From Spirochaetia bacterium (GTDB taxonomy: Bacteria; Spirochaetota; Spirochaetia; SZUA-6; Bin103), in NCBI GenBank assembly GCA_965203055.1, contig OZ241863.1:3008001-3072000 (forward strand): a stretch of 64,000 bases of DNA, in the 5' to 3' direction. The notes beneath the pieces are model-generated. The model made no database searches. It saw nothing but the letters and a program-made list of their open reading frames with translations, and was not told the DNA's origin. Each line of letters begins with the position of its first letter. Position 1 is the stretch's first letter. Both the position numbers and the translations under genes were made by a program. This document shows positions 57,074-64,000 of the stretch, piece by piece.

Positions 57074-57949
57074 TCACGCCCCCGGCGCCGCCACCGGGAT
57101 GCCATCCCGGCACACGACCGGGAAGTGCGGGCCGGCCTTGGCCATCGGTTCGCCCACCGCCAGGTCGATGAACCCCCGCATCGGGTGATCGCGGCCGGTG
57201 AACCGGGCCGCGCCGGTCATGTAGTGAATGGCCAGCGCCCGCCGCGCCCGCGCCGAGTCGTTCTCCGGCGATCCGTGCCAGGTCAGCGAATGGTGGAAGT
57301 GCACCTCCCCGCGCTTGACGGGCCGCGGGACCGCCGCCACTTCGCGGATCTCGGCGTCCTGCGGCGGGCTGAACCCGGCGCCGATGTTGGCGAAGTCGGC
57401 GACGGTGCGCAGGTGGTCGAGGGAGTTGAGGTACTCCTGCTGGCGGTTCCCCCAGCGGTGCGAGCCGGGCACCATCCACATGCAGCCGTTTTCGACATCG
57501 GCGTCGTCGAACGGCAGCCACGCCGACACCGGCGTCATGGGATCGATGCTCGGCCACAGCGGCGCGTCCTGGTGCCAGCGGGTGGCGCCGCCGGCCCGGG
57601 CCGGCTTGTACTGCACCTGGTCGTGCCACACCTGCAGGTCGGCGAAGCCGGTCAACTGGCTGATGCCCCGGACGATGGCGGGATGGTACATGAGCCGTTC
57701 GAAGGCCGGCGACGCCTCCCAGATGTTGAGAATCTGCCACACCGGCCGTTCCGGCTCGAAGGCGCGGTACAGCACCGGGCGCGGAGCGCCGGCGGCGAAG
57801 CCGTCCGGCCCGACGGCGATGATGCGGTTCACCTCGGCCGACAGCTCATCCAGCTCGGCGTCGTCCAGGAGCCGGCCGGCGTTGAGGAACCCGTCGCGCC
57901 GAAAGGAGCTGACCTGTTCGGGGCTGAGCCCGGCGAAGGTTGTCGGCAT
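57074..57949 (-). CDS. Phytanoyl-CoA dioxygenase (PhyH) family protein
   Basis: WHQD, ENGCMW.VPGSH, FHH.LTWHGS..N.S...RR. Confidence 0.9.
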   Translation of the reverse strand: MPTTFAGLSPEQVSSFRRDGFLNAGRLLDDAELDELSAEVNRIIAVGPDGFAAGAPRPVLYRAFEPERPVWQILNIWEASPAFERLMYHPAIVRGISQLTGFADLQVWHDQVQYKPARAGGATRWHQDAPLWPSIDPMTPVSAWLPFDDADVENGCMWMVPGSHRWGNRQQEYLNSLDHLRTVADFANIGAGFSPPQDAEIREVAAVPRPVKRGEVHFHHSLTWHGSPENDSARARRALAIHYMTGAARFTGRDHPMRGFIDLAVGEPMAKAGPHFPVVCRDGIPVAAPGA

Positions 57950-58000
57950 CTGTCACCTCCTCGATTGCCGGAGTCTGCGGCCTAGGCAACCACCGGCGCA

Positions 58001-58010
58001 AGTGCCCGCC
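58001..58010 (+). repeat. Left direct repeat AGTGCCCGCC (candidate target-site duplication)
   Basis: Identical to 63194-63203; abuts the left TIR. Confidence 0.75.
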
Positions 58011-58640
58011 GGCGCACTTCCGATTTGTTGGTAGACCCTCGGTTTCAGCGACGGCGCGGGAGCTGGTGGAGCAGGCGTCCGGCAAGAGCAGCCGGCAGGT
58101 GATGCAGTTGCTGGCCGAGGTGGACCCGGAGCTGGCGGCGTCGGCGGATCGGGCGCGGCCCCTGGGCGGCGGGCGCTGGGAACTCAAGGCGGTGATCGAC
58201 GATGAGTGCCGGCGTGGCTTGGAGCGGCTCAAGGAGCTCCTGTCCCACGTTGATCCGCACCTGCCGTTGGGGCAGCTCATGGGGCGGCTGGTGCGGGAAG
58301 GGCTCGACCGCCACGACCCGGCCCGGCCGCCGCGCGGGCGGCGCGCCGCGCCGGCCAAAGGAGCCGAGCAAACTTCGGCGGCGAAGACGCGGCGCCTCGG
58401 CCGGCAGGCTGCGACGACGGGCACGGCGCGGGCTGCGCCGCCGGCGCGGACCGAAACTTCGCCAGCGAAGACCGGCGGCGCGACCGGGGCCGCTGCCGCT
58501 ACGTGGACCGCACCAGCGGGCGCCGCTGCGGCTCCCAACACCTGCTGCAGATCGATCACGTCGTGCCGTCATCTTACACTGGGACTTGGGCTTGGCCGCC
58601 AAGCGGCCTGACGCTTACCTACATTTTGGAAATGCGCCCC
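58011..58640 (+). mobile_element. Internally deleted (MITE-like) copy of the HNH element
   Basis: Both ends retained; collinear homology to 61567-63193 with four internal deletions. Confidence 0.8.
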
Positions 58641-58754
58641 ATGACAGACGTCCGCTTGCCGTCAAGGCATCAAGCGAGCACGCTGATTCGGTTTGACGCC
58701 CAGACGGGCGGTGAGTCGATGCCGCGCTTGGGCCTTGAACCTTGAACAGACCAC

Positions 58755-58791
58755 TTGCCCATACGTACCAAACGTGAGATATTGATACGTA
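58755..58791 (+). promoter_or_regulatory. TA promoter/operator
   Basis: TTGCCC-N17-GATATT with two ATACGTA boxes (58761-58767, 58785-58791). Confidence 0.55.
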
Positions 58792-58799
58792 GCAGCGTC

Positions 58800-59063
58800 A
58801 TGAGCACGAAACTCACCCTGAGCGTCAACGCTACGATCGTCCAACGGGCGAAGGAGTTGGCGAGACGGCGACGAACGAGCCTCTCCGGACTGGTTGAGGA
58901 GTATCTCCGATTTGCCAGCGCCGGCCTTGATGAGCGGCCCGCCGTCAGCAGCCGAGTTCAGGCGGTTGCCGAATCACTGCCGATGCCGCCGGACGCTACC
59001 TACGATCGCTTGCAGGAGCAGTACCTGCGGGAAAAGCTACTCGGTGCGGAAGATTCTGCTTGA
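58800..59063 (+). CDS. DUF6364-like RHH antitoxin
   Basis: MSTKLTLSVNATIVQRAKELARRRRTSLSGLVEEYL. Confidence 0.85.
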   Translation: MSTKLTLSVNATIVQRAKELARRRRTSLSGLVEEYLRFASAGLDERPAVSSRVQAVAESLPMPPDATYDRLQEQYLREKLLGAEDSA

Positions 59064-59508
59064 TTCCGACGTCATTCTGGACCTGTTCGTCTCGCGCGAA
59101 CCGCATCACACGGTCGCCTTGCATTTCTTCTCGTGCATCGATCTCGAGCGAGACACCATCAGCGCAACGGCGTCGCCGGTGGCTATGGCCAACGTCGCCT
59201 ACGTGTTGGCCAAGTTGAAGAATCAGGCATTTGCGGTGGGTAAACTGCGCGAACTCAGAACCATGATCGGGGTGTCTCCCATCAACCAAACGGTCGTGGA
59301 CCGTGCCCTGGCACGTCCGCATCGTGATTTCGAAGATGCCCTGCAACGAGAATGCGCGCTGGAGAATGGGATCGAGATTCTCGTGACTCGCAACACCCGC
59401 CACTATTCCAAGACCGACGTCGCTATCCTCTCACCGGCTGACTTCTTGCAGCTTCACGGCGCCGCGCTGGCGCTCATAGGCGGCGGCGGACCGGACAGAC
59501 CGACCTAA
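59044..59508 (+). CDS. PIN-domain (VapC-like) toxin
   Basis: ILLDSDVILD, DFEDALQ..CA, LVTRN..HY; overlaps antitoxin. Confidence 0.88.
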   Translation: MRKILLDSDVILDLFVSREPHHTVALHFFSCIDLERDTISATASPVAMANVAYVLAKLKNQAFAVGKLRELRTMIGVSPINQTVVDRALARPHRDFEDALQRECALENGIEILVTRNTRHYSKTDVAILSPADFLQLHGAALALIGGGGPDRPT

Positions 59509-61474
59509 TCCGCCAGCCGAACCAGAAGCTGCTTGCCCTCCAGCGTTTGGCGCGCCCAATACAGGTTCTGGTATTGATCGTAGCCGCCCTCGCTCTCTGC
59601 CAACCTTGCCGCGCCGGTCGCGGTGGTACCGCCGGACGGCGCTGCCCCGAAGGTCACGGTTGGAGCAGTCGTGTAACCGCTCCCACGGTCCGTGATCGTC
59701 ACCGACGCTACGCGCAGCGCCGCAGTGCCGGCGGCCGTGGCGCCGGCACCCGGCGCCGCGCCAAAGGTCACGGTTGGGGCAGTGGTGTAGCCGCTCCCAC
59801 GGTTCATGACATTCACCGACGTGACGCGCAGCGCCGCAGTGCCGGCGGCCGTGGTGCCGCCGCCCGGCGCCGCGCCAAAGGTCACGGTTGGGGCAGTCGC
59901 GTAGCCGCTCCCGCGGTTCGTGATCGTCACCGACGCTACGCGCAGCGCCGCAGTGCCGGCGGCCGTGGTGCCGCCGCCCGGCGCCGCGCCAAAGGTCACG
60001 GTTGGGGCAGTCGCGTAGCCGCTCCCACGGTTCGTGAGCGTCACCGACGTGACGCCGGTTTGCAGCACTGCGGTGCCGGTGGCCGTGGTGCCGCCGGACG
60101 GCGCCGCTCCGAAGGTCACGGTTGGGGCAGAGGTGTAGCCGGCCCCCGCGTTCGTGAGCGTCACTCCCTCTACTCTGGTCGTCCGTAACGTCGCGGTGGC
60201 GCTCGCGCCGGTGCCCCCTCCTCCCGAAAACGATACGGTTGGGGCAGAGGTGTAGCCGCTCCCCCGGTTCAATAGGATTATGTTCACCACACTACCGGAA
60301 CTTATCGTCGCCCATCCGATTGCCCGGGTGCCACCGGCGGCCTGCGGAGCGCTGAACGTTACGGTTGGACCAGACGTGTAGCCGTTCCCCCCGCTCGTGA
60401 GCGTCACCGTCCCTACTTCTGATCGCAGCGTTGCGGTGCCGGTCGCCGTGGTGCCGCCGGACGGCGCTGCTCCGAACGTCACGGTGGGAGCGGACGTGTA
60501 GCCGTTCCCCCGGTTCCCGATCGTCACTGACGCGACGCCGCCGGGCCCCACCGCGGTGCCGGTGGCCGCGGTGCCGCCGGACGGCGGTGCGCTGAACGTC
60601 ACGCTGGGAACCGACGCGTAGCCGCTTCCCGCAGTCCCGACCGTCACCGCGTCGACGGCGCCCGCCGCGGCGCCGGTCGCCGTGGTGCCGCCGGACGGCG
60701 GCGCGCTGAACGTCACGGTAGGGACGGAAGTGTAGCCGCTTCCTGCGGTCCCGACCGTCACGGCATCGACGGCGCCCGCCGCGGCGCCGGTCGCCGTGGT
60801 GCCGCCGGACGGCGGCGCACTGAACGTCACGGTGGGAGCGGATGCATATCCGCTTCCTGCGGTCCCGACCGTCACGGCATCGACCGAGGCCACCGCGGTG
60901 CCGGTTGCCGTGGTGCCGCCGGACGGCGCCGCCTCGAACGTCACGCCGGGAACGGACGCATAGCCGCTCCCCGGGTTCGCTATCGTGACCGCCTGAACCG
61001 TGCCGACGGCGCCCGGCTCGATCGTGTCGGAGCCCGACTGATCCGGGGCGGTGAGCGCCAGTACCACTGCGCCCGCCCGGACTTCCGGGGTGACCGTCCA
61101 CTCCGCGCCGGTGAGGTCGGACGCGAAGACCGGCTTGGCGCTCGTGGTCGTGAACGGCAGCGGGTGCCCGCCGATCGACACCTGCACCTTCTCGCCCTCG
61201 CCGCCGGTGATCCGCTCCCAGGCATACGGCGCGGAACGGTTGGTCGTTGCGCTCAGCAGGTCCGCGCCGTCACCAAAGTCAGCCGCGCTGATCGTCCAGC
61301 TCTTCTCGGCCGGCTGGGCCGGCTGCGGGGTTGGCGGCGGCTCGCTCGGCGGTTTACCCCCCCCCCTTGGGCCGGGTCGGCGGTCGCGGCGGGCGGGCCC
61401 GCCGCCTGCGCGCAGGCCATCAGCATGGCGATACCGGCGGCCAGCAACAGCGATACCAGCGACGCTCTGCCCAA
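59505..61474 (-). CDS. Repeat-rich surface lipoprotein, frameshifted at a G10 tract (61357-61366)
   Basis: AGGAGG RBS + TTG, signal MGRASLVSLLLAAGIAMLMA-C in one frame; 12 GSGY.SAPTVTF repeats in another frame; the frames meet at the homopolymer. Confidence 0.78.
61357..61366 (-). repeat. G10 homopolymer, candidate phase-variation tract
   Basis: 10 consecutive C on + strand; G8 or G11 restores the frame. Confidence 0.75.
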
Positions 61475-61684
61475 GATTATCCTCCTGCCGGGCGGTTGGT
61501 CCCAGGCGGCGGCACGGTAGCACGCGCTCCCCAAGCTGTCCATCCCCACATCGCTCGCTCGCTGCGGGGCGCACTTCCAATTTGCTGGTACCGATCCCGG
61601 CAGCAGCATCTGACGGAACGTCCAGCCGCTTGGAAATGCGCCGCCGAGTCACGCCCGCAGGTGGCATCTTCCGGGCCGAATAAC

Positions 61685-61713
61685 TTGACTCAAGTAGTTT
61701 CCATGATTATACT
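61685..61713 (+). promoter_or_regulatory. Sigma70 promoter, probably giving a leaderless HNH transcript
   Basis: TTGACT-N17-TATACT; ATG 7 nt after -10; palindrome ACTTGACTCAAGT over -35. Confidence 0.75.
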
Positions 61714-61719
61714 TATATC

Positions 61720-63104
61720 ATGTACAATCAGGCTTCCGACGAGGCCGTCACCACTACCGTATCAGCCCTCTCAGACGACCGCCTGCTGGAGCGGACCAAG
61801 GAACTTTCCGGCATCGAACACCATCTCGAAGTGGTCGTGATCGACCACCTGCGCGAGATTCAGAAGCGCCGCCTGTATCTGCGCCGCGGGTTCTCGAGCC
61901 TGTTCGATTACGCGGTGCGCGAGTTGGGTTACAGCGACGCTGCGGCGTGGCGGCGCATCAAGGCGATGCGGCTCTGCGCGGAGGTCGAGGGCGTGCGTGA
62001 GCGCCTGCAGAATGGCTCGATGACGCTGAACGCGGCGGCGCAGTTGCAGAACGCCTTCGACCGGCAGGAGCGCAAGAAGGAACGGGCGGCGCGTAGCGCG
62101 CCGGGCGGTGTCGGGTGCGGGGCTGCCGCTCAGTCGCAGAACGGCTCGGCGCCGCCGCGGTCGGCGGAGCGGAAGCCGGCGCCGGTGCTGGATCCGGAGG
62201 CGCGGCGGGAGCTGGTGGAGCAGGCGTCCGGCAAGAGCAGCCGGGAGGTGATGCAGTTGCTGGCCGAGGTGGACCCGGAGCTGGCGGCGCCGGCGGATCG
62301 GGTGCGGGCGCTGGGCGGCGGGCACTGGGAGCTCAAGGCGGTGATCGACGATGAGTGCCGGCGCGGCTTGGAGCGGCTGAAGGGCCTCCTGTCCCACGTC
62401 GATCCGCACCTGACGATGGGGCAGCTCACGGCGCGGCTGGTGCGGGAAGGGCTCGACCGTCACGACCCGGCCCGGCCGCCGCGCGGGCGGCGCGCCGCGC
62501 CGGCCAAAGGCGCCGAGCAAACTTCGGCGCCGAAGACGCAGGCGGCCTCGGCTCGCGGCGCTGCCTCGGCAACGAAGCAGGAGGCCGGCGCGGACAGCGC
62601 CGCTCCTTCGGCGGCGAGGTATCGGCTCAGGCGGCGGCGCAGCCGGGAGACGAAGCCGCTGACCGCTCGGACACTTCGGCAGCGAAGCCGGCGGGCGACG
62701 CAACTTCGGCGCCGAAGACGCGGCGCCTCGGCCGGCCGGCTGCGGTGGCGTGCGTGGCGCGGGCTGCGCCGCCGGCGCGGACCGAAACTTCGGAAGCTAA
62801 GGCCGGCGGCGCGACCGGCCGCGCCATCCCGGCGGCGGTCAAGCGCGAGGTCTGGCGGCGCGATCGGGGCCGCTGCCGCTACGTGGACCGCACCAGCGGG
62901 CGCCGCTGCGGCTCCCAACACCTGCTGCAGATCGATCACGTGGTGCCGTATGCCTGCGGCGGCGGCGCCGAGCCGAACAATCTCCGCCTGCTGTGCGCCG
63001 CCCATCACCGCTACCGCCACGCCGGCGCCGGGTTCGGCCGCCCCGGCGAGGATCGGCAGGCGACGGTTCCGTTCAGCCCTACTGCCGAAAGCGTAGACCG
63101 GTGA
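61720..63104 (+). pseudogene. DUF222-like/HNH endonuclease with a 1-nt frameshift near 62617
   Basis: N-terminal LSDDRLL...HL.EI..RRLY...GFSSLFDY; C-terminal CRY...C...QIDHVVP..GG...NNLRLLCAAHH in the -1 frame. Confidence 0.82.
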
Positions 63105-63193
63105 TCAAGATCGCCGAGAAACGTCATCTTACACTGGGACTTGGGCTTGGCCGCCAAGCGGCCTGACGCTTACCTGCATTTGGAAATGCGCCC

Positions 63194-63203
63194 AGTGCCC
63201 GCC
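63194..63203 (+). repeat. Right direct repeat AGTGCCCGCC
   Basis: Identical to 58001-58010; abuts the right TIR. Confidence 0.75.
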
Positions 63204-63250
63204 GGCGCGCAGCCCGACATATTGACTAGTGATACCATAATGAATACCAT

Positions 63251-63313
63251 ATGGCAACGGATATTACTATAGATCGTGTCGGACTCGTTGTGGTGCCGAG
63301 AACAGTTCTGTGA
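63251..63313 (+). pseudogene. AbrB/MazE-type antitoxin remnant
   Basis: MATDITIDRVGLVVVPRTVL* resembles the AbrB N-terminus; TACCAT repeats upstream. Confidence 0.5.
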
Positions 63314-63377
63314 CCGGGGAACTTGGTTCCTGGTACCGTTCCGGCACCAATAGAAGAATTCCCCTGAGGAGGCGGTT

Positions 63378-63587
63378 ATGATGGGCGGTAATAAAATCAG
63401 AGAGATGATCGAATTACTTTCTCACTTTTTTTACTCTGATGAAGATGGTTTTGATATTATTGTGGATAGAAATACTTTAACTTTCAGTGATCTTCGGCGG
63501 ACTGATACTTTTTGTATAAAGACCAAACAAAATTTTGAGATTACACTAGATGAAAGATATGGGCTGCACTATAGACCAAGAAAATAG
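63378..63587 (+). CDS. Small AT-rich hypothetical protein (69 aa)
   Basis: GAGGAGG RBS, intact ORF in strongly AT-rich DNA. Confidence 0.55.
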   Translation: MMGGNKIREMIELLSHFFYSDEDGFDIIVDRNTLTFSDLRRTDTFCIKTKQNFEITLDERYGLHYRPRK

Positions 63588-63739
63588 AGAGCTAACTGCA
63601 AGAGCTATATCGCTTCGCTCGCTTCCGGATGACGGGCATTGCAGTGGTGACGCCGTGATCCACCCAACAGCGTGCTCACCACCCCGCTACCGGCCGTGTT
63701 TGCTACCGGTGACCCCAACGCAGGAGTAGAGGAGCTGGC

Positions 63740-64000
63740 GTGATCATCAAGAGCAACCCCGGCCACGTCGATACCGAGCGGATCGTGCTGTTTCCGTTCG
63801 ACGATCATGGCCTGCCGTTTCGTCACGGGGTGCGGCTCCATCTGGTGAGCCACCGGACGCCGGTGGACCGCACCCGCATCGTGGTTCCGCCCGGACCTCC
63901 CGGCGCGCCCGACAGCAAGCGCGTCATCTACTACGGCACGGTGCTCCGGGTCGGCGGCGAGCTGTGGATGTGGTATCTCGGACAGGGCGACGACGACCAC
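63740..64000 (+). CDS. Hypothetical protein, possibly beta-propeller glycosidase-like (3' truncated by window)
   Basis: GAGGAG RBS + GTG; open to window end: MIIKSNPG...LFPFDD...YYGTVLRVGGELWMWYLG. Confidence 0.65.
   Translation, partial: MIIKSNPGHVDTERIVLFPFDDHGLPFRHGVRLHLVSHRTPVDRTRIVVPPGPPGAPDSKRVIYYGTVLRVGGELWMWYLGQGDDDH

Follow-up and report, generated by a model that had tools for sequence, protein, structure and literature searches.

Mobile insertion cassettes (MICs) are non-autonomous derivatives of insertion sequences (ISs), in which IS ends surround passenger genes, no transposase is present and movement is provided in trans. Nucleases that are not transposases can also travel within transposons, and the accessory nucleases of IS200/IS605 elements, IscB and TnpB, promote retention of the transposon. 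Among elements that transpose by a DDE enzyme, the ISKra4 group corresponds to p-MULT 4, a group of prokaryotic Mutator-like transposons; passages of the same survey describe four ISKra4 elements with extra genes of unknown function, and some members of the group are reported to insert immediately upstream of sigma-A promoters (Guerillot et al., 2014; PMC3942029). Composite non-autonomous transposons can arise from two miniature elements, as outlined for the Tn3-derived TIMEs (PMC4133298). Multicopy HNH genes, such as the REP13E12 or DUF222-HNH repeats of Mycobacterium tuberculosis (Gordon et al., 1999, cited in PMC10589994), have long been without a known means of spreading. Here, an HNH nuclease gene bounded by inverted repeats at positions 61567-63193 of a 64-kb stretch of a Spirochaetia genome (the whole stretch is referred to as the window) was analyzed. 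With a probability of about 0.82, this unit is a non-autonomous cassette with the ends of an ISKra4-family IS, most likely moved in trans by the IS transposase, and it forms a composite transposon with a second copy in the window.

An earlier sequence-only reading of the window had bounded the HNH gene with terminal inverted repeats of about 24 bp. All four end sequences are present where it placed them: left ends at 61567-61590 and 58010/58011-58033, and, on the minus strand, right ends at 58616-58639 and 63171-63193. When up to two mismatches are allowed, a degenerate 17-mer based on the terminal word has four matches in the window, at 58011, 58622 (minus strand), 61568 and 63176 (minus strand); the expectation for 64 kb is 0.12 matches, and none of 100 shuffles reached four. 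A repeat search of the window returned 58616-58640 and 61566-61590 as an inverted pair of 25 nt (80% complementary) and bore out the near identity of the right ends of the two copies, 58567-58631 matching 63122-63186 at 95%.

The source of these ends was found in the same genome (G000, a single contig of 4,557,819 bases, 4.56 Mb). When the genome was searched with the end tips by blastn-short, the left-end word was also seen to bound a different unit of 1523 bp. This unit starts with GGGCGCACTTCCAATTTGTAGGTA and terminates in ...TACGTTTTGGAAGTGCGCCC, its inverted ends being GGGCGCACTTCCAATTTGTAGGTA... and ...TACCTACGTTTTGGAAGTGCGCCC, and it holds one open reading frame (ORF) of 467 amino acids. 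The protein belongs to the ISKra4 family, scoring 214.6 bits over residues 29-445 on the NCBIfam model NF033572 (cut-off 205), and also matches Pfam UPF0236 (E 2.3e-10). Eight full copies of the IS, pairwise 98.2-100% identical (median 100%), are accompanied by one internally deleted copy and fragments. The target duplication is 9 bp long, with 9/9 bases identical in seven of nine copies and 8/9 in the other two. The autonomous IS with the same terminal inverted repeats for which the sequence-only reading had proposed a search is thus present. As that reading had foreseen, the novelty of the locus is lowered because the ends come from an IS and the HNH gene was captured by a derivative of it.

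The similarity between cassette and IS is limited to the ends. It covers bases 1-24 (91.7%) and the last 39-40 bases (82.5% over 40) of the IS, or bases 1-28 for the long form of the cassette. On the right, bases 1589-1627 of the window copy correspond to IS bases 1485-1523, a stretch that includes the transposase stop codon. The cassette itself is devoid of a recognizable transposase: Pfam matches of the window ORFs and of an intact copy were to HNH families only, and a scan of the window ORFs against NCBIfam gave no transposase family. Thirteen cassettes in the genome have two ends, and the flanking 9-mers are identical at 9/9 positions in three of them, at 8/9 in two and at 7/9 or fewer in eight; among 2000 random pairs scored alike, 9/9 was reached once and 8/9 21 times. 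Shared ends, lack of a transposase and a target duplication of equal length are the hallmarks of a non-autonomous IS derivative, and because the ends belong to an ISKra4-family IS of the same genome, the HNH unit is best regarded as its transposase-less derivative. The ends had been proposed to be cis-acting mobility sites used by the nuclease. They are indeed mobility sites, as the terminal inverted repeats and 9-bp duplications attest, but those of the ISKra4-family IS, with no sign of use by the HNH protein.

The cassette is abundant. A 1.69-kb query gave 64 matches by genome search and 92 blastn segments; about 30 copies are near full length and 86-94% identical to the window copy, the others being fragments, and pairwise identities among cassette copies range from 84.7% to 94.8%. 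The right border is sharp: homology stops at ...GGAAATGCGCCC, with unrelated DNA beyond it in the 30 copies listed, and the terminal GCGCCC is kept even by internally deleted copies. At the left end, GGGCGCACTTCCAATTTGTTGGTA adjoins a stretch whose length differs greatly among copies and which is the decaying 3' part of a large methyltransferase gene. From 60 bp to about 4 kb of this gene is kept in other copies, while copy B, the HNH unit of the window, retains only its last codons (Table 1). In long copies the gene is whole and encodes a protein of 1306-1361 amino acids with an Eco57I/MmeI-type methyltransferase and target-recognition domains (Pfam). Because the left stretch is this one gene trimmed to differing lengths, the cassette family is read as the deletion series of an ancestral layout that ran from the left end through the methyltransferase gene, a relic end, the promoter and the HNH gene to the right end. 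The IS ends would thus have come to flank a methyltransferase-HNH gene pair, and the cassette would then have shrunk by many internal deletions. An IS transposase of the Mutator superfamily of DDE enzymes, made elsewhere, would bind the cassette ends, and the cassette would transpose, duplicating 9 bp of its target.

The methyltransferase gene, of the restriction-modification kind, is itself multicopy. At least seven copies of about 80-95% nucleotide identity are present in the genome (G000:C1:980285-984337 and near 2067106-2071060, 2594732-2598716, 4383956-4387877, 1764255-1769429 and 1396538-1405390), a number that is unusual for 4.6 Mb, and four copies have neither a neighboring HNH gene nor an IS left end. 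At the other extreme of size, G000:C1:568188-568718 is a 531-bp two-ended derivative of the cassette, similar to a miniature inverted-repeat transposable element, from which most of the HNH gene is deleted.

In the window, copies A and B lie in direct orientation around three cargo genes. Copy A is an internally deleted remnant, related to copy B in three blocks of the HNH gene: 58041-58340 with 62190-62489 (92%), 58371-58487 with 62702-62818 (90%) and 58465-58569 with 62845-62949 (95%). Neither copy has a duplication of its own. The flanks of copy A agree at 4/9 positions at the exact borders and at best 6/9 within two bases; the inner flanks of the pair match nothing, and the outer flanks are the same 9-mer, AGTGCCCGC. 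Cargo lying between two copies, and a target duplication confined to the outer ends, constitute the arrangement of a composite transposon, and the simplest reading is that 58010-63193 inserted as a single unit of 5.2 kb by joint use of the outer ends. Copies A and B would in this case have been mobilized together, along with the lipoprotein gene and the DUF6364 and PIN genes, the latter two forming a toxin-antitoxin-like pair. Because the identity of AGTGCCCGC runs six bases on (CGGCGC) into the first bases of the left end of copy A, the left border of the composite is uncertain by a few bases. Both outer junctions are crossed by contigs of four runs from four studies (labeled as sponge or marine metagenomes, or coded), which cover 57600-58039/58040 and 63156/63164 onward.

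In copy B, a subterminal motif had been described as shared by the two ends in inverted orientation, and both halves exist, CGTCCAGCCGCTTGG at 61620-61634 and its inverted partner CCAAGCGGCCTGACG at 63155-63169. Next to the left motif, however, comes TTGGAAATGCGCC, which duplicates the right-end tip without inversion. The left motif therefore looks like a relic third IS end and not like half of a symmetrical pair; a comparable extra internal IS end is found in a cassette of a related genome (G003). The region contains three promoter-like sites, compared with 0.1 in shuffles, and one of them immediately precedes the HNH gene. No terminator-like site was found in 61500-63300. The hairpin noted near the right end by the sequence-only reading is present. 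The features of both copies and of the cargo are collected in Table 1.

Table 1. Features of the putative composite transposon and of the HNH cassette, given as positions in the window
Feature	Positions	Strand	Basis or remark
Left 9-bp target-site duplication of the composite, AGTGCCCGC	58001-58009		Identical to 63194-63202
Copy A, internally deleted non-coding HNH cassette remnant	58010-58639	+	Left end 58010-58033, right end 58616-58639; both tips found
DUF6364 small protein gene, antitoxin-like, cargo	58800-59063	+	Pfam PF19891, E 9.4e-16
PIN-domain protein gene, toxin-like, cargo	59044-59508	+	Pfam PF13470, E 3.5e-15; start read as GTG 59044
Repeat lipoprotein gene with poly-G/C tract, cargo	59505-61474	-	ORF and 114-nt repeats
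Left terminal inverted repeat of copy B, GGGCGCACTTCCAATTTGCTGGTA	61567-61590	+	91.7% to IS left end 1-24; same word at left ends of other copies
Last codons and stop of deleted MmeI-like methyltransferase gene	61595-61611	+	Gene precedes HNH gene in long copies
Internal IS end, apparently a relic, CGTCCAGCCGCTTGGAAATGCGCCGCC, with direct right-end tip	61620-61646	+	Conserved in most copies
Promoter-like site TTGACT-17-TATACT, 6 bases before ATG	61685-61713	+	10/12 matches
HNH nuclease gene, frame broken	61720-63104	+	ORF and Pfam; one base missing after 62616
Subterminal hairpin GGCCGC-CAA-GCGGCC	63149-63163	+	Identical in 18/25 right ends
Right end of copy B	63155-63193	+	Homologous to last 39 IS bases; terminal inverted repeat 63171-63193
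Right 9-bp target-site duplication of the composite, AGTGCCCGC	63194-63202		Identical to 58001-58009

Several smaller features of this region were also recorded. A GGGACT/CTGGGA microsatellite lies just inside the right end (63131-63148) and at the same place in other copies; its unit number varies, reaching six in the copy at G000:C1:2557439-2559035. Two overlapping promoter-like sites are located at 63214-63250, 20-30 bases outside the right end. In the lipoprotein gene, the ten positions 61357-61366 are all C (G on the coding strand), and contigs of two public runs have two extra C (61356), in keeping with phase variation. The cargo segment 58731-61559 has a second copy (94.4%) at G000:C1:2454468-2457301 with no adjoining cassette ends among the listed tips; this copy could be a paralogue or the locus from which the segment came.

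The HNH gene of copy B is disrupted. Frame 1 encodes its N-terminal and middle domains, and the HNH domain is read in the frame of 62355-63104; comparison with an intact copy shows that one base has been lost after 62616, shifting the frame, and that there are an in-frame gap of 6 bases and an in-frame insert of 27 bases. Intact proteins encoded elsewhere have 441-464 amino acids. The label "DUF222-like" originally given to the gene needs correction, as Pfam DUF222 (PF02720) matched none of 11 diverse members (E<=1) and none of the window ORFs. The HNH domain (PF01844) is C-terminal and present in all 11 members, only HNH-type Pfam families match, and among solved chains this domain best matches that of a group II intron maturase (6me0, E 4.6e-4).

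Despite the broken frame in the window, the protein is under purifying selection across the copies and so is not dead cargo. Among 14 intact ORFs, the pairwise ratio of nonsynonymous to synonymous substitution (dN/dS) was 0.16, 0.34 and 0.37 in the N-terminal, middle and HNH domains, respectively, and about 1.0 in the two linkers. To avoid the bias of picking intact copies, all 32 near-full copies were then compared with their majority consensus; the corresponding ratio (pN/pS) was 0.19, 0.33 and 0.30 in the three domains, compared with 1.32 for the linkers. For the 18 broken copies alone, the domain values were 0.20, 0.30 and 0.31. Because the low domain values are found in broken copies as well, much of the divergence among copies arose under protein constraint. 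The predicted structure of the whole protein has a mean pLDDT of 60.4 and is usable for residues about 20-125 and 160-190 and for the HNH part; the confident parts are a helical N-terminal domain and portions of the middle and HNH domains. Foldseek found no solved structure at E<=0.001, and a wide fold search reached only Z<=5.6, within the stated noise. The N-terminal domain gave weak matches to the DNA-binding parts of ParB, SopB, Noc and KorB (Foldseek E about 2, Z 5.3-5.4; for KorB, a root mean square deviation of 3.2 A over 99 residues). Because these matches lie within the noise of the tools, a ParB/KorB likeness of the modeled domain is a lead only.

The HNH family extends to related genomes. 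Members turned up in 20 of the 23 other genomes from the same taxonomic family (up to 73 matches in a single genome), and searches of 17 genomes that represent seven further families of this order gave none; related database records are uncultured Spirochaetia metagenome-assembled genomes. The ends between which the gene lies differ from genome to genome. Cassettes in G003 end in GGGTGCATTCCGTCACTGTGG... and ...CCACAGAGAAAGAATGCACCC, have 9-bp duplications and share these ends with the ISKra4 relative of that genome, an assignment that rests on 54% identity of its transposase to the G000 protein. One such cassette contains pieces of the IS interior on its left side and, after the HNH gene, a complete miniature IS copy (1-125 + 1455-1559). 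Cassettes in G019 and G017 end in GG(G/C)TCTTC(A/C)GG..TTCGTGTGG, which are the ends of a 1336-bp element. The transposase of the G019 element (L081) scores 311.1 bits on the ISL3 model NF033550 (cut-off 180), and the cassette matches the ends of L081 over 26 and 73 bases.

When 80 loci from ten related genomes were typed by end motif, the ISL3-type motif was seen at consistent distances in 32 (on both sides in 14, only downstream in 12 and only upstream in six) and an ISKra4-type tip in four; the other 44 were left untyped by the motif, which does not mean that they are without ends. An exact-seed search for inverted repeats around the same loci recovered ISL3-type ends in only five and missed known ISKra4-type ends. 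A quick maximum-likelihood tree of 84 proteins requires two changes for each end type; because well-supported branches alone force only one change, a single origin of each type may be possible. Some members behave differently. The subfamily of L050/L051 and L113/L140/L145 (G017, G020) shares only about 80-190 upstream bases, which include an AT-rich promoter, and its homology ends at or just after the stop codon, with no inverted ends recognized.

The IS transposase is most likely the enzyme that moves the cassette, as judged from the shared ends, and several observations weigh against this assignment. No recent cassette movement is seen, the highest identity between two cassette copies being 94.8%, compared with 98.2-100% for the IS. 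The present burst of the IS is therefore younger than that of the cassettes, and the two may have been active at different times. The same order of events is indicated by the IS copy at 623721-625243 (region G000:C1:623611-625294), which is inserted in a cassette, nine bases of which (CTTCCGGGC) are duplicated. A recognizable duplication is kept by only five of the 13 two-ended cassettes. G011, with 29 HNH matches and an ISKra4-type tip in four of 16 fetched loci, yielded no ISKra4 transposase match, and G017, with 52 HNH matches, some of them with ISL3-type ends, yielded no ISL3 transposase match; cassettes, many with open frames, thus persist without the presumed partner. Among the joints listed from the contigs of the four runs (15 of 70), none represents an empty site or skips the cassette or the composite, although short-read contigs break at repeats. 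Finally, purifying selection on the HNH domains is not expected of cargo that is irrelevant to propagation.

The last point raises the role of the nuclease. It may be an end- or DNA-binding nuclease that aids the persistence or spread of the cassette lineage, which is given somewhat less than an even chance, or a passenger selected for the benefit of the host. A further-reaching proposal, which we consider unlikely on present evidence, makes the HNH gene a long-lived selfish module that has repeatedly placed itself between the ends of active ISs, of ISKra4 type at least twice and also of ISL3 type, its nuclease, with a ParB/KorB-like DNA-binding part, being selected for raising the spread or retention of the cassette. 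Among the searched genomes, such a module would be confined to a single family of uncultured marine and sponge-associated spirochetes, and it would be a protein-only counterpart of the IS200/IS605 accessory nucleases.

If the gene were instead a free-standing homing-type selfish gene that inserted into ISs, the cassette ends would be the remains of the invaded ISs. This would account for its occurrence within derivatives of two unrelated IS families, for the IS interior kept on the left side of the G003 cassette and for the finding that only the gene and about 70-90 bp of promoter region are common to old paralogues. The junctions between IS and HNH sequence, however, differ by lineage, so that no common target is seen; the methyltransferase gene came along in G000; and the miniature IS copy after the gene in G003 looks like flanking by two IS-derived units, not insertion into one. 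Nor is there a recurrent target site of the homing type, the flanks beyond the ends of independent copies being unrelated in the 30 copies listed. Homing is accordingly judged improbable.

The suggestion of the sequence-only reading that the HNH nuclease is itself the mobility enzyme, with the inverted ends as its own recognition sites, would make the unit an autonomous transposon of a new kind. Constraint on all three domains in the 32 copies, including the 18 broken ones (pN/pS 0.19-0.33, compared with 1.32 in the linkers), is in keeping with an active role, as are the cassettes in genomes where no matching transposase was found and, weakly, the ParB/KorB-like matches of the N-terminal domain. 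Yet the ends and the 9-bp duplication are those of a DDE transposon in the same genome, and the end type tracks the resident IS, being ISKra4 in G000 and G003, each with its own sequences, and ISL3 in G019 and G017. A single nuclease family would need to recognize unrelated ends. The fold matches are within tool noise, and to our knowledge no strand-transfer activity has been described for HNH nucleases. Taken together, this explanation is very improbable.

A structured or guide RNA in the right end that works with the nuclease, like the omega RNA of IscB or TnpB, had also been suggested, and it is close to refuted: the hairpin is better conserved than its surroundings and the HNH domain weakly matches an IscB model, but Rfam has no match at E<=1 over 57500-64000, the 89-nt right end folds no better than shuffles (z -0.01, 89 of 200 as good), the proposed covariation check on the hairpin gave no compensatory change in 25 right ends, and the last 39 bases are an IS end that includes the transposase stop codon. 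The seven variant hairpins have four single changes that keep a wobble pair and three that break one. No RNA record was listed as holding the region. An IscB/HEARO-type nuclease was considered and rejected, since the IscB model NF040563 gives 23.7 bits against a cut-off of 175 and matches the HNH motif only. The hairpin is perhaps, as a guess, a transposase-binding or transcription-stop feature.

The reading as a non-autonomous cassette with ISKra4-family ends makes the mobility of one HNH family directly testable, because the ends, the target duplications and the likely driver are now identified. A transposase-less cassette here outnumbers its autonomous partner, builds composites that would move toxin-antitoxin and surface-protein genes, and keeps a passenger under selection. 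If the nuclease helps the cassette, non-autonomous elements would have a novel means of competing; otherwise, the cassette is an ordinary though prolific IS derivative in an IS-rich symbiont genome. Literature searches listed no description of an HNH gene carried by a non-autonomous cassette with inverted repeats.

Each of the described systems resembles the locus in part. Like REP13E12, as outlined in PMC10589994, the gene occurs in many copies and encodes a protein that combines a helical N-terminal region with an HNH domain at the C terminus, and its spread had been unexplained; unlike it, the family lacks a DUF222 match, has IS-type ends and target duplications, and belongs to another phylum. 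Two non-autonomous units that flank unrelated genes within one outer target duplication recall the TIMEs (PMC4133298), but the IS family is different and the flanking units in the window carry a gene of their own. The transposase of the autonomous partner scores above the ISKra4 cut-off, and the element has the inverted and direct repeats of that group, whereas the gene-carrying ISKra4 elements keep their transposase, and the passages of the survey that describe them name no HNH gene (PMC3942029).

As in transposons with IscB or TnpB, a conserved nuclease that is not the transposase is carried within the element; it has no RuvC domain and no guide RNA, the transposon type is different, and any likeness in mechanism is by analogy only. 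Close counterparts are the MICs, which likewise have the ends of an autonomous IS, no transposase, a target duplication of the same length and many copies. The HNH cassette departs from them in that its passenger is a nuclease gene that shows purifying selection, that its copies (about 30, with up to 43 protein matches) exceed the eight or nine of the autonomous partner, and that cassettes of a single gene family have ends from two unrelated IS families. The remaining interest of the locus lies in this combination: an HNH gene that is under selection, that outnumbers its likely driver, and whose relatives across a bacterial family are enclosed by ends from two unrelated IS families.

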